A DNA stretch of 12,895 bases, taken from UHGV virus genome UHGV-0182645; one strand, written 5' to 3'. Position 1 is the stretch's first letter. Each line of letters opens with the position of its first letter. Origin of the DNA: a virus. A program made the translations under genes and the position numbers. Below the pieces are notes generated by a model, which was given only the letters and a program-made list of their open reading frames with translations, ran no database searches and was not told the origin of the DNA. Shown here one piece after another: positions 1 through 12,895 of this stretch.

Positions 1-69
1 ATCGGCAATGCCGAAACCATCGAACTTGAAGAACGGATTGAGTACCACTATAAAATTCAAGTTGAATGA
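1..69 (+). CDS. 3' end of an ORF entering from upstream of the window (C-terminus ...IGNAETIELEERIEYHYKIQVE); product unknown
   Basis: Frame 1 is open from the window edge to TGA at 67-69. Supported only by the open frame and by operon-like packing with the two small ORFs that follow. Confidence 0.25.
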   Translation: MGNAETIELEERIEYHYKIQVE

Positions 70-100
70 TAGCAAGAGATAAGCAAGGAGTCACTACACT

Positions 101-190
101 ATGAACAGCTACTGTCTTTTCCCATCACTCGTTGTCCGCCACTCACGCGATAATCTGCATTCTTTACTCGCGCTGGGGGTGTCAAAATGA
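101..190 (+). CDS. small ORF, 29 aa (MNSYCLFPSLVVRHSRDNLHSLLALGVSK); possible leader or coupled peptide
   Basis: AAGGAG at 85-90 lies 10 nt before ATG 101. Its stop TGA 188-190 overlaps the ATG of the next ORF (ATGA). Below the ORF-track size cutoff; read by hand. Confidence 0.2.
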   Translation: MNSYCLFPSLVVRHSRDNLHSLLALGVSK

Positions 191-354
191 CCGTTCGCTA
201 CCTCAACTTTCAAATCCAGAACATCACTGGCGGTTGCTATGACTGGTTTGTCACTCTCGGAAAAGAAGTGATCACCGGGAAGCTGGATGAAGTGAAAGCT
301 AAAGCAATGGCCTACGCCTGCAAGCAAGCCAGGAAGAAATCCGCCAAAGCATAA
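187..354 (+). CDS. small basic-tailed protein, 55 aa (MTVRYLNFQIQNITGGCYDWFVTLGKEVITGKLDEVKAKAMAYACKQARKKSAKA); function unknown
   Basis: ATG 187 overlaps the upstream stop (ATGA), with a G-rich stretch (CTGGGGG) just upstream. Structured 3' region and an intrinsic terminator follow on the same strand. The antisense track ORF 109-327 has no such signals. Confidence 0.35.
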   Translation: MTVRYLNFQIQNITGGCYDWFVTLGKEVITGKLDEVKAKAMAYACKQARKKSAKA

Positions 355-459
355 AATACTGACTGTTGCGCCCTGACATTATCGTGGGGTATATTTCTAC
401 GGCACCTTAGAAAAACGGGTGCCGGGATTGGTCTCCCGGTAATGTCAAAGGCGACACAT

Positions 460-482
460 AGACGCCACAAGCGTCTTTTTTG
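460..482 (+). terminator. putative rho-independent terminator (stem AGACGC / GCGTCT, loop CACAA, then TTTTTTG)
   Basis: Hairpin followed directly by a T-run on the plus strand, downstream of the small-ORF cluster. Confidence 0.45.
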
Positions 483-645
483 TTGTCGGCGCACTCGCAC
501 ACCTATCAATGGTGGGCTGTGTGGTGGCTTCTTCGGAAGCGCCGGTTCCCTTTGACGCCGGTAAGACCAACTCCACACAGTCCACCGCCAGTAAGATTGG
601 TCTCTTCGGCGGTGGTATCGTTCACTGTCAAAGGAGGCTGCCAAT

Positions 646-861
646 ATGGCTACTATCCCTACCCCAACTCATTCTGAATTTATCTGGCGTTTCTATTCCT
701 GCCAAAAACACCTGTATATCTGCGTCATGGCTGCAACCGAAGCAGAAGCTCGTTCATACCTTCCTGAAGAACCCTGCATTTTTGCCGCACGCTTCACTCT
801 TGATGCGATGGAGATCCTCAATTACTGGAATCTGCCAATGAACTGCGTGGAGGTGCACTGA
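646..861 (+). CDS. hypothetical small protein, 71 aa, translationally coupled to the Rha-family gene
   Basis: AGGAGG at 632-637 lies 8 nt before ATG 646. Stop TGA 859-861 overlaps the ATG of the next gene by 1 nt. Confidence 0.5.
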   Translation: MATIPTPTHSEFIWRFYSCQKHLYICVMAATEAEARSYLPEEPCIFAARFTLDAMEILNYWNLPMNCVEVH

Positions 862-1802
862 TGAATCTGTCCATCTCTCAAAAAGCGACAATGACCAGTA
901 TTGAGATCGCGGAACTGGTAGGTAAGCGTCATGATAATGTGAAGCGTACCATTGAAGTATTAACTAAAGGTGGTGTCATTCAATTTCCTCAAATTGAGGA
1001 AATTGAAAATAAACAATCAGTTGGCCCTCGTCGATTTTCCAAGGCTTACATCTTTGAAGGCGAACAAGGAAAACGAGACAGCATTATTGTCGTCGCGCAG
1101 CTCTCTCCCGAATTCACCGCCCGGCTGGTGGACCGCTGGCGCGAACTGGAGAGTGCCAAAGTACAGTTAAAATCAAAAGCCGAAATTCTGGCTGAAATGG
1201 CGCAAATGCATCTTGAGCATGAACGCCGGATCAACGCCGTTAATGCCCAGGTAGCCGAAGTATCGGCACAAGTGTCCAAAGTCGCTGAAACCGTCGAGCA
1301 AATAAAGAAAGGCAATATGCCGGAAGGCTACATTGGCTACCGCCAGTTGGCGGCGAAATGTGGCCTGACTGAAGCCAAATGTCGCAACCTGGTTAACGCT
1401 TACCGGATTCCCACCGATACACATGAGTTTTTGACCCCCGATGGCTTGCTTGCGCGACGCTCCATTGTGGCTCTGGCCCCCTTCCGGAAAGCCTTCAAGC
1501 AGGTTATGTCGGAGGCAGAACCACGCAACAAACGCTGGTATCATCCCAAGATGGGGCTGTTTCAGGCAATCCATCATCCTTTACCGGAAATCCCAAAAGA
1601 TAATCTGTCACTGCATACCGCCAGAGAGAAGATCAGAAGTGGATATGCAACGGTATGCCGTCGCGCCTCATGGTCTGAAGGTGTATGGGTATGGCCCGAA
1701 GGCGGATCAAGGAAGCACTGGCGCACTATCCGGGATGGGAAAATCCATGCTATTGATTTAGCGCCAGAGGATATGGTTGCTATGGACTGGATTGTTAGTT
1801 AA
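861..1802 (+). CDS. phage regulatory protein, Rha family (antirepressor-like), 313 aa
   Basis: GGAGG at 849-853 lies 7 nt before ATG 861. The N-terminal segment TMTSIEIAELVGKRHDNVKRTIEVL matches the conserved Rha-domain signature (IAE..GK.H.NV.R.I) as I recall it; not search-verified. Confidence 0.7.
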   Translation: MNLSISQKATMTSIEIAELVGKRHDNVKRTIEVLTKGGVIQFPQIEEIENKQSVGPRRFSKAYIFEGEQGKRDSIIVVAQLSPEFTARLVDRWRELESAKVQLKSKAEILAEMAQMHLEHERRINAVNAQVAEVSAQVSKVAETVEQIKKGNMPEGYIGYRQLAAKCGLTEAKCRNLVNAYRIPTDTHEFLTPDGLLARRSIVALAPFRKAFKQVMSEAEPRNKRWYHPKMGLFQAIHHPLPEIPKDNLSLHTAREKIRSGYATVCRRASWSEGVWVWPEGGSRKHWRTIRDGKIHAIDLAPEDMVAMDWIVS

Positions 1803-1810
1803 TTACTGTT

Positions 1811-1838
1811 GCCCCGGCCAGGTCGGGGCTTTAATTTA
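1811..1838 (+). terminator. putative intrinsic terminator between convergent genes (stem GCCCCG / CGGGGC, then TTTAATTTA)
   Basis: GC-rich hairpin 9 nt after the Rha stop, followed by a T-rich tract on the plus strand. Sits between the convergent stops at 1802 and 1839. Confidence 0.4.
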
Positions 1839-2714
1839 CTAGTCCTGCTGACAATTCAGGAACATAAACGCACGTTTGTCCGTTAAATCCGTAACATAAT
1901 ATTCACGAATACCATTCGGTTTTATGCGGCGAGCATACACAAACTTATGAACTGGCTGGTCGCTGCCATAACTAACCTCAGTGCGAAATTCATCGACCGT
2001 GCTACCATCCTTTTCTGTCTCTTTGCGTATCAGCTTATTGTTCAGAACTGGTTGAGTCTCATCCATTCCGCTAAATGCATCTTGCCCGGTACTATTACCC
2101 CGGTTGCCACGTGGTAAATCCCACGAGAAATAAGTCCCATAGTCTGTAATTACCTGATCCCACGCCCCGGCTTCATCCATATAATGACTACGCTTCCCTT
2201 GGTATGTTACGTCAACCTTACAGGAAAACGTTGGCGCGCTATTACTTGCAGCAGAGGCCGTTGAAGATTGTGTAACACTGCCATTGTTGGCATTTCCATA
2301 GTTCCAGCCATCATGCAACGCTTTAACCCACAGATTAGTCAGGGATAGCGTAACATCATTCCCCAGCGCCTGGCTGATTCGAAGCCTCTGTATCCGACGC
2401 AACCCATACTCATAGGCTTCATCGTCATTAATCACTCGCCCACGTTGAGCGGCTACCACCCCAGATTGCCACGCACGATTAATTTCACGAATAAGATACA
2501 CTTGTGGATCAACTCCGTATCTGTTGTATTCATAGTAAAGGCTCATTGCGCCATGTTGGCTCTGGTATTCATTAGCCCATGATATAACCGCGTTTCTTCC
2601 ATAATCCGCGAGCGCAGAATGACTTGACAGAAGAAGAGCAACGCCAACAGTCTTCAGTAATTTGAATCGGAATAACTTTTTAATAATACGATTGGGAAAT
2701 ATGTTTTTGCTCAC
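1839..2714 (-). CDS. secreted or periplasmic protein of unknown function, 291 aa, with predicted N-terminal signal peptide; moron-like accessory gene
   Basis: 876-nt ORF starting at GTG with GAAAGG about 9 nt upstream. N-terminus has a basic n-region (KNIFPNRIIKKLFRFKLLK), a hydrophobic core (TVGVALLLSS) and an AxA-type cleavage motif (SALA/DYG). AT-rich upstream region at 2715-2830. No family recognised. Confidence 0.6.
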   Translation of the reverse strand: MSKNIFPNRIIKKLFRFKLLKTVGVALLLSSHSALADYGRNAVISWANEYQSQHGAMSLYYEYNRYGVDPQVYLIREINRAWQSGVVAAQRGRVINDDEAYEYGLRRIQRLRISQALGNDVTLSLTNLWVKALHDGWNYGNANNGSVTQSSTASAASNSAPTFSCKVDVTYQGKRSHYMDEAGAWDQVITDYGTYFSWDLPRGNRGNSTGQDAFSGMDETQPVLNNKLIRKETEKDGSTVDEFRTEVSYGSDQPVHKFVYARRIKPNGIREYYVTDLTDKRAFMFLNCQQD

Positions 2715-2943
2715 TTTTCAACCTTTCACCACAAATCAAGACTAACAACCCAATAATAATAACTAACCACTCTGTTTTTTTGATAAGCACCAAATCGTTT
2801 ACAAAAAAAATAGCAAATGACTATTGACACTATTCTGGAAATCACAAACTGCACATAATCCATCGCGCTAACGGCTCCCGTTGAAGGTTCTTTTGACGAT
2901 TAACTTTCAGCCGAAGCGCGGTAGGGAGTCATAACGCCAAAGC

Positions 2944-2968
2944 AGGCCGCCATGTGCGGCCTTTTTTT
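2944..2968 (+). terminator. strong rho-independent terminator (stem AGGCCGC / GCGGCCT, loop CATGT, then T7)
   Basis: Perfect GC-rich hairpin followed by TTTTTTT on the plus strand. No plus-strand protein gene lies upstream of it; see findings. Confidence 0.6.
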
Positions 2969-2995
2969 GTATCCGTCATCCGTGGAGGAAGGACA

Positions 2996-3649
2996 ATGGA
3001 AAAGATCGCAATATTCAGCCTGACCACCAGCAAGCCTCAAATGCTCACTGCAATACTGAAAGACGGTGCTCTCATTATTAACGAAGTAAAACCCCTTCCC
3101 GCGTCAGCATTGGAGCAAAAGCAAAAAATTCCTCCAGCTATAGCAGCCCTGCGGAAAAGCAAATTTAAGGTACTGGTAGACGAAATTACGCCAACGATCT
3201 CCGCTGGCACCGGAGCAAGTCAGGTGACTCTCAAGACCCGTCATGCCGATGGTAGAGCAGCAATCATCGTCGGGATGGAAAGATACAGAGAGTTAAAACT
3301 CCAGAAACTATTATCCCTGCCGCAAAATAACAAAGGTGCTTTCGAAATCCCCGACTCTATCGTTGATACCGAATACAATGGTAACGGAGAAGAAGTCTAC
3401 CGGGTGAACTGGCAGGACATCAGGCCGGAACATATTCTTATGATCCTGTGTTGCTACGCGACCGTATACCACAACGTTGCCAGTGCGGATTACGTAGAGC
3501 AGATGACCGGCGCAGTCGAGAAAGAGCAAAAAACAGGCATACTCGCTTCGTTCCTGTCCATTATTGGGCATGAAAAAGTTGAAGCAGGCACCTCCCAGCC
3601 AAAGTCACTGGCTGGGAAAGAAGTTGATGAAGATACCGTGATACTTTGA
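2996..3649 (+). CDS. hypothetical protein, 217 aa
   Basis: GGAGGA at 2984-2989 lies 6 nt before ATG 2996. The track ORF begins at 2954, but that ATG sits in the loop of the terminator hairpin, so I prefer 2996. No family recognised. Confidence 0.65.
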   Translation: MEKIAIFSLTTSKPQMLTAILKDGALIINEVKPLPASALEQKQKIPPAIAALRKSKFKVLVDEITPTISAGTGASQVTLKTRHADGRAAIIVGMERYRELKLQKLLSLPQNNKGAFEIPDSIVDTEYNGNGEEVYRVNWQDIRPEHILMILCCYATVYHNVASADYVEQMTGAVEKEQKTGILASFLSIIGHEKVEAGTSQPKSLAGKEVDEDTVIL

Positions 3650-3977
3650 TCACATTAGTAGCTTTGTTAACTCCCTCAATACCAGGTAGAAGAGTAACAA
3701 AAATATTGACGCCAGTATTTGCGTGGTCAATGAAGCGTTCATAAACAGATCAATTAGCATTAATAATTCGAATATAACATCCATGTCATTCACTCCGTTT
3801 AATTTTTAATCTAATGCCAGCAAATGAAGCTGGCCCCCGCACAAAGATTAATGAAAGTCACTTGTCACCAGTGAGGGGATTTATGAACCACATCCCCCTG
3901 AACTGGTGGCCTGTCTGTTTCTCACATTTCACACCCTGCATACAGTTTCCCCCAGGTTATGACTGAGAGGCTTTGTT

Positions 3978-4307
3978 ATGGGCTATAGCAGACTCGACGA
4001 CAGGTACATTGAAGACGATATTTTTCGTGCGCTGTTTCACCAGGAAATGATTAAGCGGGTATCGGAGTATCACTCTGATAATTTCCAGTACACGATAAAG
4101 ATTGATGAAGTATATCGTTCAGACCTTGCAGCCTACAGGGCGTATGGCAATGCAGATTTGCGCTGGGTATTCCGGGTGCTGGTGGGCCATGAGTCAGAAA
4201 TGGAAGAAATGCCCGCCGGGACCACGTTAACTCTTCCTGATGTGGCATGGCTGAGGAACAAGATCCGTGATTACGCGAGCGCGGAACCGGAGATAGAAAA
4301 TGCCTGA
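3978..4307 (+). CDS. small protein with C-terminal LysM-like / phage tail protein X-like segment (tentative), 109 aa
   Basis: GAGAGG at 3965-3970 lies 7 nt before ATG 3978. The C-terminal stretch YRAYGNADLRWVFRVLVGHESEMEEMPAGTTLTLPDVAWL resembles the P2 gpX pattern (..YYG....VL.....P.GT.V.LPDV) from memory. Its stop overlaps the next start. Confidence 0.55.
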   Translation: MGYSRLDDRYIEDDIFRALFHQEMIKRVSEYHSDNFQYTIKIDEVYRSDLAAYRAYGNADLRWVFRVLVGHESEMEEMPAGTTLTLPDVAWLRNKIRDYASAEPEIENA

Positions 4308-5493
4308 TTTCCTGAAAAACCAGGACGGGCGCTATATCACTGACGGCCTGTCCTCTAAGGACTTCACGCGTTTATTCGACCTTATCAGGAAAGAACAAAC
4401 CCGTAAGCGCCGACAAGCTCACCGGACGCTGACGCCAGGTAGACTGAGGAACAAATCCGCCGAAGATATTCTCAAGTTAGGGAAGAAAAAAGGCGGCACG
4501 TTCTTCACGCGAGACGACCTGAAAGGTTTCGAAAAGCTACGGAGTAAAACACGCGAAAAATATGACAGCAAGACGGCTGGCATCACATACGCCCAGCTGG
4601 TGGCATCCAGCCAGGCAATCGATATTAAGCGTGCAAATAACGCCGTGGATGACGGATCTGGTATCAAAAGAGCTACACCCGTATCTCTTCGCCACAACGT
4701 GATTAATATCCGCGTAGAAGCATCGGATATATCCGTCCACCAGCACCATATCGTCCGGATACGCTTTGAAGAATGGGATCAGATGGTCGATGACATCGCA
4801 GAAGACGATAAATCAGCTCTGAAAATCACTAAATCACTGTGCGCTGGGCGGGTGTCTTTCGATTGTGACTGTGGTCGTCATCAATACTGGTATCGTTACA
4901 TCGCTACTGCGGGTAACTTTGCCCTGGCCCCGCCAAAAGAATACGCCTATCCAAAAGTTCGTAACCCTAAGCTACAAGGCGTCGCCTGTAAACACGTGAT
5001 CCACTCAATGACGCGGTTACAGTCCGCTAGTTGGCAAATGAGTATTGCTCGTGCGTTACAAAAGGCCGCAACGCAAATTGCATTTGGTGACGATCGCCGC
5101 CGTACAACCAAACACTTCTCAAAAGAAGACGAGAGGGAGTTTAATCGCAATCGCAACAGTAAAACAAACGTTGACGCTGCCAAGCGCGAATGGAGGCTCT
5201 ATCAGAAGCGCCAGGCAGCTTTAAGTACAAAACTGGCAAAGGACAACGGCAAGATCGACAAGCTACGTGACCAATTGACCAGGGCCAGAAAGTTGTCAGA
5301 CGCACAGAAAAAACGGGCGGCTGCAAAAGAAGCGGCCTTGCAACGTGAGAAACAGAAAAACAAGGAGCTTCAGCAACGCCTTGCCGATCAGTTCGCACTG
5401 AAGAAGCAAGCGTTCATTGATGCGCTTGTCATGGCTGGAACGCCACAAGAACAGGCTGAGAAGATGTTTATAGAGTACGTGAAAAAAGCATAA
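4300..5493 (+). CDS. 397-aa protein with a CxC...CxH (SWIM-like) putative zinc-binding motif and a highly charged C-terminal coiled-coil-like tail; function unknown
   Basis: ATG 4300 overlaps the upstream stop (ATGCCTGA). Motif FDCDCGRHQYW...GVACKHVIH. The last ~100 aa are K/R/E/Q/A-rich with heptad-like periodicity. Confidence 0.7.
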   Translation: MPDFLKNQDGRYITDGLSSKDFTRLFDLIRKEQTRKRRQAHRTLTPGRLRNKSAEDILKLGKKKGGTFFTRDDLKGFEKLRSKTREKYDSKTAGITYAQLVASSQAIDIKRANNAVDDGSGIKRATPVSLRHNVINIRVEASDISVHQHHIVRIRFEEWDQMVDDIAEDDKSALKITKSLCAGRVSFDCDCGRHQYWYRYIATAGNFALAPPKEYAYPKVRNPKLQGVACKHVIHSMTRLQSASWQMSIARALQKAATQIAFGDDRRRTTKHFSKEDEREFNRNRNSKTNVDAAKREWRLYQKRQAALSTKLAKDNGKIDKLRDQLTRARKLSDAQKKRAAAKEAALQREKQKNKELQQRLADQFALKKQAFIDALVMAGTPQEQAEKMFIEYVKKA

Positions 5494-5526
5494 ACCACAC
5501 ATAGCCTAGTAGTTTATGCTGGGCTT

Positions 5527-6255
5527 TCATTTTTTTGAAAGATCAATTCCAGTATTATCAAACAAACTGGAAATATCAGACACCAATTTATTAAAATGCT
5601 TGTCATCATTATAGAATGATGTGCTTTTTATAGCGACTATAAAATCACATAAATCTTGCGGAGATTCAATGCTAACCCCCTTATTTTTATATAGCTCAAT
5701 AATACTGCCAACATCAGTATGCAATAGTTTTATCGCGCCACAAATTTCTCGCTGTTTCGCAACTAGGTCATTAAGTTTATTTTCATTTTCATCTAAGATT
5801 TGTTTTGAATATTTAGCGTCATTGGTTGCTTGATTTAACTTTGTTTTCTTTCTTTGCAATTCTATTCTTTTATCATAATCAGCAACTTCATCTAAATATC
5901 TTATTTCAGTGTATAATTTACTTGTTAGCTTAGATATCTTCAGTGTGAGAATAGGAGCTAACACAGATGCAAATACTCCATAAACAAATGGGATTACAAC
6001 GTGATAAACCCACGGGGATACAATCCAATTATCAAAGAACGGGACATTGCCACCAACAAAAACAATAGATAATGTATATAGGATGTCGTCCTTTGACTTT
6101 AATATAATTAAAATATCCTTCCAGTTAAAAATTAGAAAAGAAATGACAACATATGCAAAAACCTTGTTAAATATTTTATCTTTTATTATTTCAGAAAATG
6201 ATTTTAGTTCTGTTTCATTTATAGACGGATTATCTGTAACTTTTTCTGACATCAT
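5527..6255 (-). CDS. AT-rich membrane protein, 242 aa: two predicted TM segments, a coiled-coil segment and a C-terminal domain; candidate exclusion or abortive-infection effector
   Basis: AGGAT lies 6 nt before ATG 6255. Hydrophobic segments VFAYVVISFLIFNWKDILIIL and VVIPFVYGVFASVLAPILTL, then a charged heptad-like stretch (RIELQRKKTKLNQATNDAKYSKQILDENENKLNDLVAKQ). Hand-counted G+C in sampled 60-nt stretches is about 23-32%, against about 50% in flanking genes. Confidence 0.65.
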   Translation of the reverse strand: MMSEKVTDNPSINETELKSFSEIIKDKIFNKVFAYVVISFLIFNWKDILIILKSKDDILYTLSIVFVGGNVPFFDNWIVSPWVYHVVIPFVYGVFASVLAPILTLKISKLTSKLYTEIRYLDEVADYDKRIELQRKKTKLNQATNDAKYSKQILDENENKLNDLVAKQREICGAIKLLHTDVGSIIELYKNKGVSIESPQDLCDFIVAIKSTSFYNDDKHFNKLVSDISSLFDNTGIDLSKK

Positions 6256-6276
6256 AGCTTATCCTGATTACTTTTA

Positions 6277-6477
6277 TTATGGATAGTTAAAAGATTCAAC
6301 AGGTGATGGTGGCTGAATTGGGTAATGTTTCTTCTCGTACTCCTCAATGAGAAGACTCATAACCTCAAAGAAATCACCTTCCGGAGTATTCATTTCCGGT
6401 TCGTTATCGAACATCGGTTCGACCGCACGCAGTGCGGCCTCATAATCTTGTTCTGTACGGATAGGTTTAATGTTCAT
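6277..6477 (-). CDS. orphan 66-aa ORF resembling only the N-terminal (non-HTH) part of a longer HigA-type antitoxin; possible gene remnant or small partner of the adjacent membrane protein
   Basis: Sequence MNIKPIRTEQDYEAALRAVEPMFDNEPEMNTPEGDFFEVMSLLIEEYEKKHYPIQPP fits the N-terminal consensus I recall for that antitoxin family (..EYE.AL..I..L.D....PEGD..E.L..LIE.YE..HYPI). The ORF stops where the HTH would start. No clear SD; it starts 12 nt after a terminator hairpin. Confidence 0.4.
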   Translation of the reverse strand: MNIKPIRTEQDYEAALRAVEPMFDNEPEMNTPEGDFFEVMSLLIEEYEKKHYPIQPPSPVESFNYP

Positions 6478-6489
6478 TAATTACAAAGG

Positions 6490-6516
6490 AAAGCCCACTT
6501 GCTAAGTGGGCTTTTT
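6490..6516. terminator. bidirectional-capable intrinsic terminator (10-bp stem AAAGCCCACT / AGTGGGCTTT, loop TGCTA)
   Basis: Perfect 10-bp stem. Followed on the plus strand by TTGTATGTGTTTT and on the minus strand by CCUUUGU. Sits 18 nt past the higA stop. Confidence 0.5.
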
Positions 6517-6533
6517 GTATGTGTTTTACTATA

Positions 6534-6872
6534 TCAGGCTGCTTTTTTATTCAGGTTCCGCTGAGAAATAAATTTTTCAGCAGTATTGATACGACTTAAC
6601 TCTTCCTGAACGCGCATATCATTTTCGACTTCCCACAGATCTACTGCGGTCTGAAGATTAATCCAAAAATCTACAGAAGTATCGAATGCTTTTGCCAGGC
6701 GATATGCCATATCCATCGTTAGCTTACGATTATTATTAACAAGAGCACTTACGGTGTTACGATGAACATGAAGTATTTCTGCTAACTCGTTGATCTTCAG
6801 CTCTAACGGCTCCAGGTATTCGTACAGAAGGATATCACCTACGGTCGTCGGTTTTCTGGTTGCCTGTTTCAT
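6534..6872 (-). CDS. higA: HigA-type antitoxin, XRE-family HTH, 112 aa
   Basis: AAGGG lies about 7 nt before ATG 6872. The protein shows the HigA pattern (PGDIL..EYLEPL...INELAEIL.V....VS.L.N....LT.DMA.RL...F..S..FW.NLQ) and lies immediately downstream of the HigB-like toxin gene. Confidence 0.85.
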   Translation of the reverse strand: MKQATRKPTTVGDILLYEYLEPLELKINELAEILHVHRNTVSALVNNNRKLTMDMAYRLAKAFDTSVDFWINLQTAVDLWEVENDMRVQEELSRINTAEKFISQRNLNKKAA

Positions 6873-6942
6873 TTTTTGCCCTTACTAGCGTGCGTATTAA
6901 GTGGACTCTGGTCAGAACCCGGACCGTAACCGGGAATCTGTT

Positions 6943-7245
6943 TTAGTATTTGTGAGGGTCGAGATACAAGTCCTCGGCCTTTCCGTTAACCCACTTAAAA
7001 ATTAACCTATATTGCTTATTCACCCTTACTGATGAATAGCCATTTAGCTTCCCTGACAGTTCCTCATACCGATTACCTGGTGGTGATCTTAAATCCTTAC
7101 AGGTAGTTGCGGCATTGATAATGTCCAACTTCCGTGACAATGTCATATGAATATCAGGAGGTATCTTTCTATGTGGTGTTGAAAATTCAAAAAAATCATC
7201 AAGCCACGCATCCCTGAAATCCTTTATGTTAATTTTTTTGGTCAT
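6943..7245 (-). CDS. higB: HigB-type toxin (RelE/ParE superfamily, killer-protein family), 100 aa
   Basis: C-terminal signature YEELSGKLNGYSSVRVNKQYRLIFKWVNGKAEDLYLDPHKY matches the HigB killer-protein motif (W/YR..F.F.NGDA..L.Y.DYH) from memory. Toxin-first order with the HTH antitoxin downstream. Confidence 0.85.
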   Translation of the reverse strand: MTKKINIKDFRDAWLDDFFEFSTPHRKIPPDIHMTLSRKLDIINAATTCKDLRSPPGNRYEELSGKLNGYSSVRVNKQYRLIFKWVNGKAEDLYLDPHKY

Positions 7246-7284
7246 TAGTCATTTGATCCTCCGTGATGATTACCGAATGCCATA

Positions 7285-7318
7285 ACTATAGCGCACTGTT
7301 GCACTGTGCGCAAGTGCA
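7285..7318 (-). promoter_or_regulatory. putative higBA promoter with overlapping operator-like repeats (-10 TATAGT; GCACTGT x2 plus inverted GTGCA)
   Basis: On the minus strand, TATAGT (plus coords 7285-7290) sits about 40 nt upstream of the higB ATG. Immediately upstream is GCACTGT-T-GCACTGT-GCGCAA-GTGCA (7293-7318), a typical arrangement for autoregulated TA operators. The -35 is weak (TTGCGC). Confidence 0.35.
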
Positions 7319-7407
7319 TTTTATGGATTCCCCCTCCTTCATCCAAAATCACAATCTCCCGAAAATCTTCCTTTCGATACCTGACAGATCGACCTTTGAG
7401 GATGCTT

Positions 7408-8199
7408 ATGGGCCGTTTTGACGAATGGTTTGCTGACGATGCAAACCTGGCAAGTAAGGAGTCAGAACATGACAGCACGCAGAGAGAAACGCCAGCGCCG
7501 ATTGAAGCGAATGCAGGAGGTGCGCCGGAACATGGCAATACCGGTTCGGATTCATTCAGCATTCTGGAAGAGCAACCCGCCGCCAAAGCTGATAGCCATG
7601 ATAATTTTGCTGATAGCAACGCTGGCCTTACTCCGGATGCTGCCGAATCAGATATAGCCATACTTCCACCTTCCCTGGCTGGCAGAGAACCAACTCCACA
7701 GCTAAAAGCACGCTATAACGGGCATAAAGCCTTTAATGACCAAATCCGCGCAGACTGGATGCTGATTATTGAATCCAGCCCAGACGCGTTTCAGGCTCTC
7801 TTATATCGACCAGATGTTGGCACATATGGGGTAGTCAGCGACGAAACAGGAGAAGAGTCATTCACTGAACTGGATAACAACCAACGCGAACTGACTTACC
7901 AGGAACCTGAAATCGTTTATGTGCTGGATAACCCTGACGGGCGTGACTCTTTCCATGCGATTGACGCAGACGGTGAGCAGGATGGCTTAACCGATGATGT
8001 TCTGATTCTGCGTATTGCAGCAAATAACGTCCCCGTCGGCTCAATTCTTGAATGGAATGAAGAGATGGTAAACGGCGTAGCCCGCCGCTGGTGGTACGTG
8101 CACCGTATTTTTAGCTACGGCACACAGCATGTTGGTTCGCTTTACTACTGCATACCTGCCAGGAATTTTGATACGACTCAAAACGGAGTGATCGAATGA
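7408..8199 (+). CDS. hypothetical protein, 263 aa, with an acidic low-complexity N-terminal half; first gene of a four-gene coupled operon
   Basis: GAGG at 7398-7401 lies 6 nt before ATG 7408. The track ORF starts at GTG 7306, but that would run through the divergent higBA promoter. Stop overlaps the next start (ATGA). Confidence 0.65.
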   Translation: MGRFDEWFADDANLASKESEHDSTQRETPAPIEANAGGAPEHGNTGSDSFSILEEQPAAKADSHDNFADSNAGLTPDAAESDIAILPPSLAGREPTPQLKARYNGHKAFNDQIRADWMLIIESSPDAFQALLYRPDVGTYGVVSDETGEESFTELDNNQRELTYQEPEIVYVLDNPDGRDSFHAIDADGEQDGLTDDVLILRIAANNVPVGSILEWNEEMVNGVARRWWYVHRIFSYGTQHVGSLYYCIPARNFDTTQNGVIE

Positions 8200-8963
8200 C
8201 TTCAAATAAAACCCTCCTGGCGCGAACAGGTGAATGGCAAACCTCACGCACAGGAAAATTCCAGACCACGGGCTTTGAAAACGTGGATAACGCGTTTGCG
8301 ACGCTAATCAGCAACATTTTTTCTGATATCTTACTTGTGGCCCCCGCGCCGGAAGAAAAACGCTTTGCGTCATTCCTGAATCGTCCACCAGCAGAGCGTG
8401 TCTATGTGGCCCGTTTCGACAATGCGATCGAGTTTCTTAAAGCAGTACGTCGCGCAAATGCCGGGCAAGGGAGAAAACCTGAAAACCAGAACATTAACCG
8501 GGATGCTCTCCCCCTGGTCAATATCTCACGCACTATGGATATCAATTATATCAACGATGATCAGCAGATTGACCGCAAAAAAGTAGCCAGTTTTTGCGAA
8601 CCGGATACCGGAATGCCTTTAGCAGAACTGGAATACACCCAGGCCATTCTGACGTATGACGTTACGTTAATGGCAACTGATAAAGCGACCATGAGTCTGA
8701 TGTGTAATTCGCTGGGCGCACGGCTTCGCCTGATGACAGGTACACAATTTGAAGCAACCACTCACCTTGTTCGTGTCCCGGTCCCGCTGATTTGCTCGAT
8801 ACAGGATGCCAAAGAAGTCGGCTTTACGGATGTTTCAGCACCAATTGGAGAAGAGCGTATTTATGCCACACAAGCGCCGATAAGTGTGATTGCAGACGTG
8901 ATCACAGCATGGGAGTTGGACGCAAAACGTATTATTACCGAAACCTCGATATCTATGGGGTGA
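8196..8963 (+). CDS. hypothetical protein, 255 aa
   Basis: ATG 8196 overlaps the upstream stop. Continuous coding-like composition. No family recognised. Confidence 0.65.
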   Translation: MTSNKTLLARTGEWQTSRTGKFQTTGFENVDNAFATLISNIFSDILLVAPAPEEKRFASFLNRPPAERVYVARFDNAIEFLKAVRRANAGQGRKPENQNINRDALPLVNISRTMDINYINDDQQIDRKKVASFCEPDTGMPLAELEYTQAILTYDVTLMATDKATMSLMCNSLGARLRLMTGTQFEATTHLVRVPVPLICSIQDAKEVGFTDVSAPIGEERIYATQAPISVIADVITAWELDAKRIITETSISMG

Positions 8964-8966
8964 TAA

Positions 8967-9947
8967 GTGGCCCAGGAGTTACAACAATATTTTCTACAGT
9001 CAGTGCTCATTAACGATAACAAAGTGCCACGAGACTGGATTTTTACCGCAGTATATGTAGAAAAAACCAGCCTCAAAGCCCCTTTGCTAAAACTGGAAAT
9101 TCATGACGCTACCGGCACCGTAATTGATGACTGGAAAGCAAAATACGGTGCATCGCTGGTGGCTGAAATGGGCGATCCAAACGGTAATGCAGGCACTTTT
9201 AAAACAGATTTCTTTGTTACGTCTGCAATGCTGGCTGGTGATGTTGTTACCGTTATTGCTGTCAGTGAAGACGTGCGCAGGTTTAAGATCCCCTCCCCGC
9301 GCACAAATTTACATACCAACAAAACACCAGACGCTATATTCAAGGCATATTCCGGCAAGCTTAAAATTACCAGCAGCGTGCTAAAACGCGCAGTTACATA
9401 TCATCTGAATGCCGGTGACAAACCGTCAAAAATGCTCTCGCAGATAGCGCGAGACAAAGGTGCATTATGTTGGGTATGCCGTGGGGAATTTAACTTTTAC
9501 ACCCTGGCTGATCTGATGAAGCAAACGCCATCATTTACCTACGAGGGGAATAACCCTAAAGCAGAATACACTTTGTCCAAAATGCGCCTACTCCAACAGG
9601 AACATGCGACAACAGCAAAGAATCAATATCGTTTTGTTGGGTATTCCATGACCGATGGCTACGTCGAATATGGCGATAGCTCACTCCCAGTGCGTTATAT
9701 ATCCGACTCTGATATGGAAACTCTTCGCAATATGCAGCTGTCTCTCGTCCCCAAAATGGATATAGAAGTCGCAGGCAATCCGGATATAAAACCGGGAATG
9801 GTAATAGAGATTATCGTATACCGCTATGACCAGGAAAACCGCATTGATGAATCAATGCCCCGCAAGCTGATAGTAAAAAATGTTGCGCACTTTGAAGACC
9901 GCGTAGGCTACACAACACGAATGATATTAGGAGTGCCGAACAAATGA
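8967..9947 (+). CDS. hypothetical protein, 326 aa (GTG start); possibly a structural or baseplate-associated protein by position
   Basis: GTG 8967 with GGGGTGA upstream, 3 nt after the previous stop. Its stop overlaps the next start (ATGA). A functional guess rests only on adjacency to the spike-like gene. Confidence 0.6.
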   Translation: MAQELQQYFLQSVLINDNKVPRDWIFTAVYVEKTSLKAPLLKLEIHDATGTVIDDWKAKYGASLVAEMGDPNGNAGTFKTDFFVTSAMLAGDVVTVIAVSEDVRRFKIPSPRTNLHTNKTPDAIFKAYSGKLKITSSVLKRAVTYHLNAGDKPSKMLSQIARDKGALCWVCRGEFNFYTLADLMKQTPSFTYEGNNPKAEYTLSKMRLLQQEHATTAKNQYRFVGYSMTDGYVEYGDSSLPVRYISDSDMETLRNMQLSLVPKMDIEVAGNPDIKPGMVIEIIVYRYDQENRIDESMPRKLIVKNVAHFEDRVGYTTRMILGVPNK

Positions 9948-10597
9948 AGCGTAGAGCGCAAATTGTTGGAACTGTGCACCCGGCAGGGCTTATGCGTGCT
10001 CAGGTCCGTGTTTTACCAGACTGGAATGGCGTTCCTGATGACGATCTACCCTGGGCAGAATACCTGTTACCCATAGGTAACGCGTTTGTACCTACAGTAA
10101 AAGGCGACCTGGTATGGGTAGAGTTTCCTTATCTGGATGTTAATGGTCGAATTGATACCAGACGCCCAATGATAGTTGGCGCAGCTCAGGATGCGCCTGG
10201 CGGAGTACCAAACGTCGCGCCGGAGGCGTCAGGCAATGGTAGCGGCTGGACGCCACCAGAAGTAGACGGAGCGCCTCCCCGCCCGCAATTTTCGGCGACA
10301 AAAGATTTCGTGATTCACCGCAACAATGTGCTCGAAGTGCGAACGGCTGGCGGTGGATATGAAATAGCGAATACGGCAGCAGGCTCAAGGATTGGAATGA
10401 ATGAATCAGGGCAGATATACATCATTGGTCCGGCTGATGTAGTAGTGAATGCGGGAGGGAGTGTTAACGTCAAATCAGCCGATAACATCAGCGTTAATGG
10501 CAAAAACATTACTGTGACAGCCGACGAAAATATTGATTTCAAGGCTGGAGGCACCTTCCAGGCTATCGCAAGCAACTTTGATTTCAAGAAGGGATAG
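9944..10597 (+). CDS. gp5/gpV-type spike-like protein (N-terminal OB-fold signature, C-terminal repetitive beta-rich segment), 217 aa
   Basis: N-terminus AQIVGTVHPAGLMRAQVRVLPDW...LPWAEYLLPIGNAFVPTVKGDLVWVEFPY...RRPMIVGA lines up by eye with P2 gpV (GIIVETDLNAGRCRVQT..TDWLQWL...PSVGEQVLIL...FVLPGIY). C-terminus is G/N/V-rich (VVVNAGGSVNVKSADNISVNGKNITVTADENIDFKAGG). Not search-verified. Confidence 0.5.
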   Translation: MKRRAQIVGTVHPAGLMRAQVRVLPDWNGVPDDDLPWAEYLLPIGNAFVPTVKGDLVWVEFPYLDVNGRIDTRRPMIVGAAQDAPGGVPNVAPEASGNGSGWTPPEVDGAPPRPQFSATKDFVIHRNNVLEVRTAGGGYEIANTAAGSRIGMNESGQIYIIGPADVVVNAGGSVNVKSADNISVNGKNITVTADENIDFKAGGTFQAIASNFDFKKG

Positions 10598-10606
10598 AAA
10601 ACACAT

Positions 10607-10650
10607 CCAATTGTGTTAGATAATTGAATAGAATTTTCTAACACAATTGG
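10607..10650. repeat. perfect 14-bp inverted repeat (CCAATTGTGTTAGA ... TCTAACACAATTGG) with a 16-bp AT-rich spacer, just upstream of rdgC
   Basis: Exact reverse complements at 10607-10620 and 10637-10650. The right arm overlaps the rdgC ribosome-binding region (GGTGA at 10649-10653). Confidence 0.6.
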
Positions 10651-10656
10651 TGAAAC

Positions 10657-11562
10657 ATGAGATCAGTCGCTTTCAAAAACATCTTCATCTATCGTCTTTC
10701 ACGTGAAGTTAACTGGAGTGCCGCAGAAGTATCCGATGCTCTTAGCAAATTCGTGTTTACTCCTTGCGGTTCTCAGGACACAGCTAAAGTCGGTTGGACA
10801 CCTGTTCTTGGTGACAACCTCACCCATGAATACCAGGGTTTTCTGCTAATACAGCATAAGCGAGAAGAAAAAATTCTCCCCTCGCAGGTGCTCAAGGAAG
10901 AGTTGCAGAAAAAAGTCCTGAAACTCGAAGAAGAGCAAGCCCGCAAGCTGAAGAAAACGGAAAGAGACAGTCTTAAAGATGAAGTCCTGCATTCACTTTT
11001 GCCTCGCGCGTTCACGAGAAAATCACTCGCCAAAATCCTGATCGACCGCAGCAACCATCTGGTATTCGTTGAGGCAAGCAGCGCCAAAAAGGCAGAGGAC
11101 CAGCTGGCTTTATTGCGAAAGTCGCTCGGCAGCCTGCCTGTCATTCCATTCACACCACGCGAACCGCTGGAAATTACAATGACCGAGTGGTTTAAAAGCG
11201 GCTTCCCTGCCGGATTTACAGCAGGTGAAGACGCCACATTAAAGGGTCTGCTCGATAATGGTGGTGCCGTTCGCTGCAACAAAGTTGATCTACAGTCCGA
11301 CGAGATTATGTCTCACATTGAGGCGGGGAAAGTAGCTACGACCGTTGCAATTAACTGGATGGACCGTGCGTCGTTCAGAGTCAACGATGATATGAGTATC
11401 AAAGCCCTGACATTCTGTGATGATCTCTATGACCAGAACGACGATATCGACCGGGAGGATGTAGCACAACGATTTGATGCTGATTTCGTGCTCTTTACGG
11501 GCGAATTATCTGCACTGTTTAACGCGCTGGTGGAGGCCATTGGCGGTGAAGCAGAACGATAA
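10657..11562 (+). CDS. rdgC: recombination-associated protein RdgC homolog, 301 aa
   Basis: Near-colinear by-eye match to E. coli RdgC over the full length, for example [94 protein letters not shown] and GGEA. GGTGA lies 4 nt before the ATG. Confidence 0.9.
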
Positions 11563-11578
11563 TAACCGACCGCTTGTT

Positions 11579-12226
11579 GTGAGTCTTTGTGATTTTACGG
11601 GGGCAATGGTTGCCCCCTGGCTGGAATACGGTGTCGATGCCGCTATCGTCGATCCACAGCACTTATCGACCAGTGACGAGCGGATGCAATCAGGTGCCGT
11701 TCTGACGCGTATTAGTGCGATCATCGATAGCGATGAAGTATACGCTTTTCTCCGTAAGAATTTGCAGCGCATCGTGTTTCTGGCCGGGTTCCCACCGTGT
11801 ACTGACCTGGCTGTTTCCGGCGCGCGCTGGTTTTCGGACAAGGCTAATAAAGATCCGGTTTTCCAGTTCAAAGCAATGCAGGTTGTCTGGCAGTGTTATG
11901 ACATTGCAAAGATGATCGGTTGTCCGTACATGATTGAAAATCCGGTCAGCAAAATATCGACATTCTGGCGTAAGCCAGATCACATCTTTCACCCTTACTT
12001 CTTCACTGCATATTGTCAGGAAGATAACTACACCAAAAAAACATGCCTCTGGAGCGGCCAGGGCTTTGTCATGCCTGATGCCCTAATGGACGAATCATTA
12101 GGCAAGCCAGATAACAGAATCCATGCCGCGCCACCAGGGCCTGACAGGGCTAATTTCCGAAGTGCTACTCCACATGGATTCGCAAAGGCAGTTTTCGAAG
12201 CGAATAAGGGGGTGCTCTATGAGTAA
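11579..12226 (+). CDS. compact C5-cytosine-methyltransferase-like protein (motif I-like, PPC in place of PCQ, ENP in place of ENV, C-terminal motif-X-like), about 215 aa; start uncertain
   Basis: VVSLCDFTGAMVAPWLEYGVDAAIVD resembles motif I of C5-MTases, FLAGFPPCTDLAVSG resembles motif IV (GFPCQ.FS.SG), and YMIENPVS resembles motif VI. There is no room for a normal target-recognition domain. I chose GTG 11579 to retain motif I without overlapping rdgC; ATG 11606 and ATG 11474 are alternatives. Confidence 0.5.
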   Translation: MSLCDFTGAMVAPWLEYGVDAAIVDPQHLSTSDERMQSGAVLTRISAIIDSDEVYAFLRKNLQRIVFLAGFPPCTDLAVSGARWFSDKANKDPVFQFKAMQVVWQCYDIAKMIGCPYMIENPVSKISTFWRKPDHIFHPYFFTAYCQEDNYTKKTCLWSGQGFVMPDALMDESLGKPDNRIHAAPPGPDRANFRSATPHGFAKAVFEANKGVLYE

Positions 12227-12857
12227 ATCTATAGCAAGCATAGCCATAGAAAAACAGGATACGATGGCTGAAATTAGCTATATGCGCACCATTCGGACTC
12301 CGGATGAATATGAGCGTCCGATATTCAAATGGGTAGGTGGTAAATTCTCAGAATTGCCTACAGTGCTTGAGCATCTACCACACGGTAAGCGGTTAATAGA
12401 ACCATTCGTTGGTGGCGGTTCCGTATTTACGAATGCAGGATTTCGCCACAACCTGCTTAATGATATTAACGGTGACCTGATTAACTTCTATCAGACATTG
12501 CAGCGAGAAGGACATTCGCTCGTCACGCTGTCATATAGTTTTTTCAAAAATTACAACAACGCTGACGCTTACCTCGAAGTGCGTGAGGCATTTAACAGAG
12601 GAAAATATGACCAGCTACATCATGCTGCCGCATTTTTGTACCTTAATCGTCACTGTTTTAATGGCGTAACGCGGTACAACCAAAATGGCGAGTTCAACGT
12701 GGGGTATGGCAAATACAAAGCGCCCTACTTCCCACATGCAGAGATGGAGGCATTTTTGGCTGATGACGTACTCAAAAACACTTCCTTTGTATCAGGAGAC
12801 TTTGCTAGCGTCATCGAGGCAGCTGGTGCATCCGACGCCGATTTTGTGTACCGATAA
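12219..12857 (+). pseudogene. Dam-family (D12 class) N6-adenine methyltransferase-like ORF, apparently truncated just before the catalytic DPPY motif
   Basis: Colinear by-eye match to E. coli Dam from FKWVGGK through EPFVGGGSVF, LNDINGDLINFY, FLYLNRHCFNGVTRYNQNGEFNVGYGKYKAPYFPHAEMEAF to ...ASDADFVYR, then TAA at 12855-12857. In Dam the equivalent position reads ...DASVVYCDPPY. AAGGGGG lies 6 nt before ATG 12219; ATG 12264 is an alternative start. None of the three frames after the stop encodes DPPY within the remaining 38 nt. Confidence 0.65.
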
Positions 12858-12895
12858 TGCTGTAATGATTGCCTGCCGCGGTTATTTTATGTATC

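Follow-up and report, generated by a model that had tools for sequence, protein, structure and literature searches.

Four coupled genes in a D6-like plasmid prophage segment are very probably orthologues of P1 genes 7, 24, 6, and 5

Introduction

What do four tightly coupled genes encode when the last specifies a spike-like protein and rdgC and methyltransferase genes come next on the same strand? This question is raised by positions 7408 to 10597 of a 12,895-nucleotide stretch of viral DNA (UHGV-0182645), the whole of which is hereafter called the window. An earlier note on this DNA, based on the letters alone, had proposed several unconventional roles for the block. Here we compare the block with its relatives, including phage P1, whose protein roles are described by cryo-EM (PMC12810830), by proteomics and HHpred (PMC9024508), and in bioRxiv 10.1101/2025.07.21.665459.

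Results

The window resembles phage D6

The window shares 94% DNA identity with Escherichia phage D6 across 90% of its length, and this P1-family plasmid prophage (GenBank MF356679 / NC_050154) is a close relative. Identity is ~97% over positions 6296 to 12828, and E. coli plasmids match the window with DNA identities of up to 98.6%. The corresponding D6 genes, orf69 to orf66, overlap in the same way and encode proteins identical in length to those of the window (263, 255, 326, and 217 aa), and the D6 spike protein is 92% identical to that of the window. In both, a HigBA island lies upstream of these genes, and hrdC, a cytosine-methylase-like gene, and dmt lie downstream. The depositors of D6 labeled the four genes as “similar to P1 gene 7,” “24,” “6,” and “5.” Differences from D6 include the absence from the window of pmgF and orf80, which in D6 lie between ant and a simB-like gene, and the presence of a 66-aa ORF where D6 carries the 119-aa orf72. 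Moreover, the ends of the window are unrelated to D6, and its Dam gene is truncated.

The same arrangement recurs elsewhere. Six contigs that encode an identical spike protein carry the four ORFs with the same lengths and order (6/6), and the identical spike was found in 3750 index blocks, typically on contigs of 88 to 93 kb that hold the four-gene block along with major capsid-, sheath-, upfC-, and upfB-type genes. On these contigs, homologues of upfC (PAAR) and upfB are located ~7 kb downstream of the block; in relatives with the identical spike, the PAAR-motif gene at this distance encodes 94 aa, and it falls outside the window. The earlier note had suggested comparing gene order with relatives, and the same block was recovered in D6, P1, the distant relative L013, and the six contigs. 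The present analysis itself establishes the homologies, the order of the genes, the folds of the spike and stopper, and the variable island discussed below. The four genes are very probably the D6-lineage orthologues of P1 genes 7, 24, 6, and 5 in a D6-like plasmid prophage, and these coupled P1 genes are already known and structurally solved.

Four coupled genes match P1 tail proteins

The block lies entirely on the plus strand and consists of orthologues of gene 7 (D6 orf69; neck stopper; 7408–8199; 263 aa), gene 24 (orf68; tail terminator; 8196–8963; 255 aa), gene 6 (orf67; baseplate hub; 8967–9947; 326 aa), and gene 5 (orf66; central spike; 9944–10597; 217 aa). The four genes had been described as overlapping or abutting. 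ORFs are indeed present at these coordinates, with ATGA overlaps at the 7/24 (8196–8199) and 6/5 (9944–9947) junctions, but the 24/6 junction reads TGA-TAA-GTG, leaving a 3-nt gap before a GTG start at 8967 and no overlap. The broader view of a tightly coupled unit holds. Shine–Dalgarno-like purine runs (GAGGA, GGAG, GGGG, and AGGAG) are found 5 to 10 nt upstream of all four starts. The window, P1, D6, and other relatives all carry 7-24-6-5 in this order on a single strand, with the starts and stops coupled. This tight coupling fits co-translation of the four genes, and we infer that 7-24-6-5 is expressed late and translationally coupled. The coupled pairs also have equal copy numbers in the P1 virion, 6:6 for 7/24 and 3:3 for 6/5, a match that may be linked to the coupling.

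None of the four proteins was recognized by Pfam at threshold, and the informative resources were PHROGs, PDB sequences, and fold searches. All four products match PHROG tail families with E values of about 1e-42 to 1e-144, namely PHROG 1906 (gene 7; E 3e-115), 1767 (gene 24; E 4e-113), 1390 (gene 6; E 3e-144), and 430 (gene 5; E 8e-42). By phmmer, the PDB chains matched are those of P1 Gp7 (9ums_B; E 6e-43), Gp24 (8jan_y; E 1.6e-14, residues 13–235), Gp6 (9vzk_1; E 1.9e-71), and Gp5 (9vzk_q; E 5.4e-54). BLASTP identities to the P1 proteins are 46% for gp7 over 158 aa, only 22% for gp24 over 227 aa (E 4e-19), 37% for gp6 over 321 aa, and 46% for gp5. In P1, the orthologous genes follow this order too, their starts and stops likewise tightly coupled, and the roles of the proteins have been solved by cryo-EM (9ums, 8jan, 9vzk; PMC12810830).

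The gene 7 product resembles the P1 protein in both sequence and fold, with a helix plus beta-sandwich body homologous to the solved stopper. The best Foldseek match of its model is the P1 connector 9ums_B (E 7e-14), a chain in which 158 of 242 residues are modeled, and weaker matches were obtained with the phiCD508 neck, the T4 neck, and the phage 812 stopper chains. As a head-completion protein, the hexameric P1 gp7 forms the neck stopper and joins the adaptor to the tail terminator (PMC12810830). An alignment of 35 homologues reveals a conserved MGRFDEWF motif in residues 1 to 10, followed by a hypervariable, strongly acidic linker (residues ~11–85) that is predicted to be disordered; in the AlphaFold model, residues 11 to 81 have pLDDT values below 50. 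The conserved body comprises residues ~86 to 263. The acidic, low-complexity N terminus reported previously for this protein was confirmed, in that residues 1 to 97 include 20 D+E versus 5 K+R, and A/G/S/P/T account for 48%. This N-terminal extension, composed of the motif and the ~75-residue linker, is the one feature here that lacks an explanation in the literature consulted.

Sequence comparison links the gene 24 product to a structurally defined terminator. P1 gp24 is the tail terminator, a hexamer capping the tube and sheath (PMC12810830, PMC9024508), and it matches T4 gp15 by HHpred (PMC9024508). Likewise, the gene 6 product is homologous to a structurally defined hub through the P1 gp6 chain 9vzk_1, with no Pfam match. 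P1 gp6 is a trimeric, pseudo-hexameric baseplate hub (PMC12810830, PMC9024508), whose likeness to T4 gp27 and Mu gp44 comes from published HHpred results (PMC9024508). The D6 GenBank label “tape measure” for the hub gene is out of date.

The last protein is, as the earlier note proposed, a spike of the gp5/gpV type, in which a beta-helix follows the N-terminal OB-fold and a lysozyme domain is absent. Its structural model (pLDDT 89.9) has P1 gp5 as the top Foldseek match, and weaker but significant matches include VgrG, Afp8, PVC spikes, the R2 pyocin spike 4s37, and P2 gpV (3qr8), with the Mu spike 9ki1_V weaker still. Sequence identity to spikes of the P2 gpV, T4 gp5, Mu gp45, and VgrG types is only 12 to 18%, whereas the OB-fold and beta-helical needle are common to all of them. 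The window spike differs from T4 gp5, which carries a lysozyme domain, and from VgrG, which carries a gp27-like fusion.

The gpV-like OB-fold that had been aligned by eye at the N terminus is supported by the model match to P2 gpV and by the finding that 28 of the 42 aligned spike-family members match PF04717 (Phage_base_V). The PF04717 search proposed for this protein thus succeeded with its homologues, but the window spike alone gave no match at E values up to 0.1. Its DUF2345 match (E 0.0055) is below threshold, and the Pfam threshold for Phage_GPD was not reached. The C-terminal region, which had been noted as repetitive and beta-rich, corresponds to a beta-helical needle, as indicated by the family profile and by the full-length structural match to the P1 gp5 needle. 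The profile matches VgrG, Afp8, and T4 gp5; in T4 gp5 it reaches the beta-helix region, and in VgrG chains the C-terminal part. In P1, cryo-EM places gp5 as a trimeric spike on the hub, capped by the PAAR-like protein UpfC (PMC12810830).

Genes 26 and 25 are separated from the block by an island

The earlier note had stated that no other tail or baseplate genes were recognizable. This statement does not survive the four PHROG tail-family matches or the presence of genes 26 and 25 at positions 3978 to 5493. The gene 26 orthologue (D6 orf75; 3978–4307, plus strand) encodes a baseplate plug that matches PHROG 1269 (E 2e-36) and P1 Gp26 (PDB 9ay5_S / 9vzk; E 1e-16). It is followed by the gene 25 orthologue (D6 orf74; 4300–5493, plus strand), which encodes a “tail stability” protein (PHROG 1722; E 5e-196) with a conserved CxC...CxH motif. 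This protein is 56% identical to P1 gp25 and 46% identical to its L013 homologue, and it gave no match in PDB or Pfam. The usual baseplate partners that the earlier note did not recognize are absent only because the tail genes of P1-family genomes are spread across several late operons (PMC9024508).

In P1, gene 26 comes first in a contiguous late operon, 26-25-7-24-6-5, located behind the late promoter LP26. The six genes are also contiguous in L013, whose spike is 40% identical, and are followed there by rdgC and Dam. The window and D6, in contrast, share a split between genes 25 and 7, such that genes 26 and 25 are not joined to the block behind one late promoter as in P1. An intrinsic-terminator-like hairpin is located directly after gene 25 (5503–5525, plus strand) and would separate 26-25 from 7-24-6-5. 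Beyond it, a 1.7-kb island on the minus strand (5527–7245) splits 25 from 7. The island encodes a 242-aa orf73-like protein, a 66-aa HigA-like fragment, HigA (HTH_3), and the HigB toxin, and its G+C content falls to 31 to 34% over about positions 5500 to 6500. In outline, its cargo is a HigBA pair and a membrane-like protein. The content of this site varies among relatives, some of which carry a different toxin–antitoxin pair.

Because of this insertion, the 7-24-6-5 block would need a promoter of its own. The P1 late box was defined from LP26 and LPdar as AAGTNACTT-N4-TAnnnT. With up to two mismatches allowed, no such box was found on the plus strand between 7246 and 7407, and the window's single perfect match is on the minus strand, running leftward from 3863 and away from gene 26. 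No match to the sigma-70 consensus was listed in 7246 to 7407 in either direction, and sites in the sigma-70 scan were no more numerous than in shuffled sequence. A CACT-N7-AGTG element plus a TTATG motif precedes gene 26 and also gene 7. This element was considered as a late promoter and dropped, as it was not found upstream of D6 genes 23, 22, and 21, and its copy at gene 7 belongs to DNA specific to the island, in place of which relatives with another toxin–antitoxin pair carry other sequence. The copy at gene 7 is more likely a higBA operator or promoter.

The downstream genes resemble a separate unit

The RdgC-family gene (P1 hrdC, D6 orf65; 10657–11562, plus strand; PF04381, E 5e-103) begins after a 59-nt gap from the spike stop codon. 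This gap holds a perfect 13-bp inverted repeat, CCAATTGTGTTAG-N18-CTAACACAATTGG (10608–10651), and the TTTTCTAACA motif recurs in D6 intergenic regions. The repeat is a candidate bivalent repressor operator. Downstream of gene 5, P1 carries the convergent dbn-ban genes, whereas the window carries the rdgC and methylase genes. In P1, a uhr-hrdC-dmt operon is under C1 control at Odmt. The proposal that the operon runs on into the rdgC and methyltransferase genes is correct with regard to strand, but the gap and its inverted repeat intervene. These features suggest that rdgC and the methylase genes belong to a unit of their own under repressor control, and the RdgC-family gene is outside the virion module.

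Discussion

We propose that the four genes represent the distal two thirds of a P1-type late morphogenetic operon, 26-25-7-24-6-5, in its D6-lineage copy, and that the encoded virion proteins would act at the two ends of a contractile tail. If oligomeric states and locations in the virion are carried over from the P1 cryo-EM structures, the gene 7 product would be a hexameric stopper that serves as a cap for the portal adaptor and docks with the tail terminator, itself the presumably hexameric gene 24 product. At the other end, the gene 6 product would form a trimeric, pseudo-hexameric baseplate hub, and the gene 5 product a trimeric membrane-piercing spike. The remaining baseplate, tube, sheath, and fiber genes would reside in other late operons of a plasmid prophage of ~90 kb, as they do in P1 and D6. 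In the D6 lineage, an insertion on the opposite strand, the variable island with its HigBA pair, parts gene 25 from gene 7.

The window could instead be a defective remnant, wherein a D6-like segment (81–12828) is embedded in unrelated DNA and the four genes no longer serve to build a phage. The ends of the window (1–80 and 12829–12895) have no counterpart in D6-like phages, plasmids, or E. coli genomes. Exact-pattern scans did not find the ends in viral contigs or the right end in GTDB genome contigs, and distant blastn searches of plasmids with the ends gave no match. In addition, the right breakpoint cuts Dam to 212 aa just before DPPY, compared with 301 aa in D6. These unmatched ends and the cut Dam gene mean that the location of this copy in an intact phage is not certain. 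However, the four ORFs are intact, with the lengths seen in D6 and other contigs; the spike is identical to copies on 88- to 93-kb contigs; and the segment is 98.6 to 99.6% identical to those elements. The unmatched ends amount to only 80 and 67 nt and could be mosaic joints or artifacts of how the window was made. We consider a defective remnant improbable. The earlier suggestion that part of a tail cluster had become joined to an early region is contradicted by the same arrangement in the isolated phage D6 and on the 88- to 93-kb contigs.

Still less credible, to the point of being nearly negligible, is a minimal baseplate-tip complex of four proteins that works without the usual baseplate partners. 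Although the hub and spike are the only baseplate-type proteins encoded within 7408 to 10597, and Pfam recognizes none of the four proteins at threshold, the other two are homologous to P1 proteins, the neck stopper and the tail terminator, neither of which belongs to the baseplate. The stopper and terminator are located at the opposite end of the tail (PMC12810830), which leaves no basis for the reduced or unconventional tip module suggested earlier. P1 carries the same genes and has a full baseplate that includes Tub, PmgG, PmgA, gp16, BplA, gp26, UpfB, UpfC, and Sit (PMC12810830). Furthermore, genes 26 and 25 are present in the window, and D6 has gene 21-, 22-, 23-, upfB-, and upfC-type genes at other loci.

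Equally hard to credit is a spike fold in a nonvirion role, such as a secreted or defense-related needle co-expressed with the rdgC and methyltransferase genes that follow on the same strand in an adjacency kept even in a distant relative, because the best sequence (46% identity) and fold match is the P1 virion spike, the gene is coupled by start and stop to the hub gene, an operator-like repeat precedes rdgC in the 59-nt gap, and P1 keeps its hrdC-dmt genes elsewhere in a C1-controlled operon; nothing points to the recruitment of this protein to another role.

Within the preferred reading of a P1-type late operon, a more speculative proposal is that the N-terminal extension of the stopper has a dedicated function and that the 25/7 junction is a hotspot for cargo exchange in D6-like phage-plasmids, although we regard this combination as unlikely. 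The extension could, for example, serve as an electrostatic DNA-end gate in the neck channel or as a docking arm for internal proteins being ejected. The junction may be a dedicated site where D6-like phage-plasmids swap toxin–antitoxin or defense cargo.

As a discovery, little here is new, but a plausible misreading is corrected. On many plasmids of E. coli and Salmonella, these four genes still carry the RefSeq label “hypothetical protein,” and the P1 structures now permit the precise names stopper, tail terminator, hub, and spike. A spike gene without neighboring baseplate genes is normal in P1-family phage-plasmids.

The four coupled genes encode P1-type neck and tail tip proteins

In a megablast search, the window matches a plasmid prophage of the P1 family, Escherichia phage D6, with 94% identity across 90% of its length. 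At least 80% of the window is also covered by 81 plasmids (best 98.6% identity) and in 70 of 5426 complete E. coli genomes, on plasmids or chromosomes. A protein identical to the spike of the window occurs in 3750 index blocks, and the same four-gene block surrounds it in all six contigs examined, five of which are 88 to 93 kb long.

The four plus-strand ORFs are orthologues of P1 genes 7 (7408–8199, 263 aa), 24 (8196–8963, 255 aa), 6 (8967–9947, 326 aa), and 5 (9944–10597, 217 aa). The earlier note had described them as overlapping or abutting. This holds for the first and third junctions, which are ATGA overlaps; the middle junction (TGA-TAA-GTG) is instead a 3-nt gap followed by a GTG start. 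A Shine-Dalgarno-like purine run precedes each of the four starts, and the proposed coupling of the genes stands.

All four products match PHROG tail families (E 1e-42 to 1e-144), and each matches a structurally solved P1 virion protein: Gp7 (PDB 9ums_B, E 6e-43; 46% identity to the P1 protein), Gp24 (8jan_y, E 1.6e-14; 22%), Gp6 (9vzk_1, E 1.9e-71; 37%), and Gp5 (9vzk_q, E 5.4e-54; 46%). In cryo-EM structures of P1, the portal-adaptor-stopper connector has a gp7 hexamer as its stopper, which docks on the tail terminator, a gp24 hexamer. The hub is a gp6 trimer, and the spike is a gp5 trimer that carries the PAAR-like UpfC as its cap, with the UpfB tripod around it (PMC12810830). An independent preprint gives gp6 and gp5 the same roles (10.1101/2025.07.21.665459). 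Earlier proteomics and HHpred analyses likened gp24 to T4 gp15 and gp6 to T4 gp27 and Mu gp44; in P1 gp5 they recognised the OB-fold and beta-helix known from T4 gp5, but no lysozyme domain (PMC9024508).

The depositors of D6 had annotated orf69 to orf66 as similar to P1 genes 7, 24, 6, and 5. The block is not the orphan, reduced baseplate tip that had been entertained but an ordinary, already characterised P1/D6 module of stopper, terminator, hub, and spike. In RefSeq plasmid records all four genes are labelled hypothetical proteins. The GenBank entry for D6 names the gene 6 orthologue (orf67) a putative tail tape measure protein, whereas gp6 is the hub in the P1 structures; the tape measure is Sit according to PMC9024508.

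Spike fold and stopper N-terminus

Searched alone against Pfam, the window spike protein does not reach PF04717, and its sole signal is a sub-threshold match to DUF2345. When the family was aligned (the window protein and 41 homologues), 28 of the 42 members matched PF04717, and the family profile matched contractile injection system (CIS) and T6SS spikes as well as T4 gp5 in the PDB. The AlphaFold model (pLDDT 89.9) has P1 gp5 as its top fold match (E 1e-21, TM 0.72), followed by VgrG, Afp8, PVC spikes, the R2 pyocin spike, and P2 gpV (E 7e-8 to 1e-3), and more weakly by the Mu spike (E 0.013) and plain OB-folds such as IF1. Because the model matches P1 gp5 and other OB-fold spikes, the OB-fold originally recognised by eye in the last gene product is correct.

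The acidic, low-complexity N-terminal part attributed to the first product is likewise borne out, with 20 acidic against 5 basic residues and an A/G/S/P/T content of 48% within residues 1 to 97. Across 35 aligned homologues, the stopper begins with a conserved MGRFDEWF motif, followed by an acidic, hypervariable linker of varying length and by a well conserved body from about residue 86 onward. The structural model has pLDDT values below 50 at residues 11 to 81 and then a confident helix and beta-sandwich. In fold comparison it comes closest to the P1 connector chain, in which 158 of 242 residues are modelled; other phage neck and stopper chains match weakly. This linker is the sole part of the finding without an explanation in the cited literature.

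A probable separate unit of rdgC and the methylase genes

The 59-nt gap between the spike stop codon and rdgC carries a perfect 13-bp inverted repeat (10608–10651). Its half-site, TTTTCTAACA, resembles the C1 operator core of P1. In D6, the half-site is nearly confined to intergenic regions, lying ahead of pdcB, hrdC, and gene 23 and flanking ref on either side, and TTTTCTAACA(C/T) is found at positions 7028–7055, 11125, 11779, 23621–23648, and 33554 of the D6 locus (L001), often as inverted pairs. About 0.07 copies of the 10-mer are expected by chance in 37.8 kb, counting both strands. The TTTTCTAACA(C/T) motif, present directly upstream of rdgC, is a candidate operator of the D6-type C1 repressor. 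Given this repeat, its likeness to a C1 operator, and the fact that hrdC-dmt is a C1-controlled operon in P1, we infer that rdgC and the methylase genes do not end the morphogenetic operon but are a unit of their own under repressor control.

The right breakpoint of the window falls inside the dmt-like Dam gene. The ORF (12219–12857) ends in DADFVYR after 212 aa and lacks the catalytic DPPY motif, whereas D6 Dam continues through VIFCDPPYEPL to 301 aa. Window positions 1–80 and 12829–12895 had no match in D6-like phages, plasmids, or E. coli genomes; neither end was found in viral contigs, nor the right end in GTDB genome contigs. These unmatched ends (80 and 67 bases) and the truncation of Dam just before DPPY could indicate that this copy sits in a rearranged element, although the four genes themselves are intact; a defective remnant that no longer builds a phage is very improbable.

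Near the left end, isrK (402–481; Rfam, 60 bits), a C4 antisense RNA (505–592; Rfam, 75 bits), icd (646–861), and a Rha/Ant-type antirepressor gene (861–1802) make up a P1-type immI immunity region. Between the antirepressor and a simB-like gene (1802–1839), the window lacks pmgF and orf80 of D6.

A P1-type operon split at a variable hotspot

In P1, genes 26-25-7-24-6-5 lie contiguously behind the late promoter LP26, and a distant relative (spike identity 40%) likewise carries all six in one run, with rdgC and a Dam methylase gene behind them. The window retains orthologues of the plug gene 26 (P1 Gp26 in the PDB, E 1e-16) and of gene 25 at 3978–5493. Thus, the claim that the four tail-family genes lack other recognisable tail or baseplate partners does not hold. 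Further P1-family tail genes reside in other operons (sheath gene 22, tube gene bplB, tub, pmgG, pmgA, gene 16, bplA, sit, R, S, U, upfB, and upfC; PMC9024508), and D6 carries homologues of genes 21, 22, 23, upfB, and upfC elsewhere in its genome.

The gene 25 product (4300–5493) had no match in Pfam or the PDB. Its CDC...CKH motif (FDCDCGRHQYWYRY...GVACKH), kept in P1 gp25 and a 46%-identical homologue, recalls a SWIM-type zinc finger; the long basic C-terminal region that follows may adopt a coiled-coil structure.

A perfect P1-type late-promoter palindrome (AAGTSACTT) lies at 3855–3863. Read on the minus strand, and so away from gene 26, it has a TAATCT -10 box at the correct spacing; in the plus direction the corresponding hexamer, CCAGTG, makes a poor -10 box. 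In P1, LPpmgL and LP26 diverge from the equivalent box. Motif and promoter scans upstream of gene 7 identified no promoter for the split-off 7-24-6-5 block.

One contig with the identical spike (L008; GCA_900604155.1, 822 kb) is of chromosomal size and holds a D6-like element. At about 13230–20607, the glnS-like gene of this element is in fragments and nagE-, nagB-, nagA-, and nagC-type genes follow directly, which suggests integration via homologous recombination between phage-borne and chromosomal glnS.

Directly after gene 25, a terminator-like hairpin (5503–5525) is followed by a minus-strand island (5527–7245) encoding an orf73-like protein, a short HigA-like ORF, HigA, and HigB, with G+C falling to 31 to 34% over about 5500–6500. 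The short ORF (6277–6477, 66 aa) resembles a HigA-like regulator family (PHROG 1373) in the N-terminal part of that family alone, and it stands where D6 has the 119-aa HigA-like orf72. Among the six contigs with the identical spike, the cargo at the 25/7 junction differs, comprising toxin-antitoxin pairs (HigB-like PF05015 with an HTH_3 antitoxin, or HigB_toxin PF09907 with a 119-aa partner) and extra ORFs, whereas P1 and the distant relative have nothing inserted there. Homology between the island variants restarts just ~60 nt upstream of gene 7. Therefore, the P1-type operon is split at a variable hotspot in the D6 lineage.
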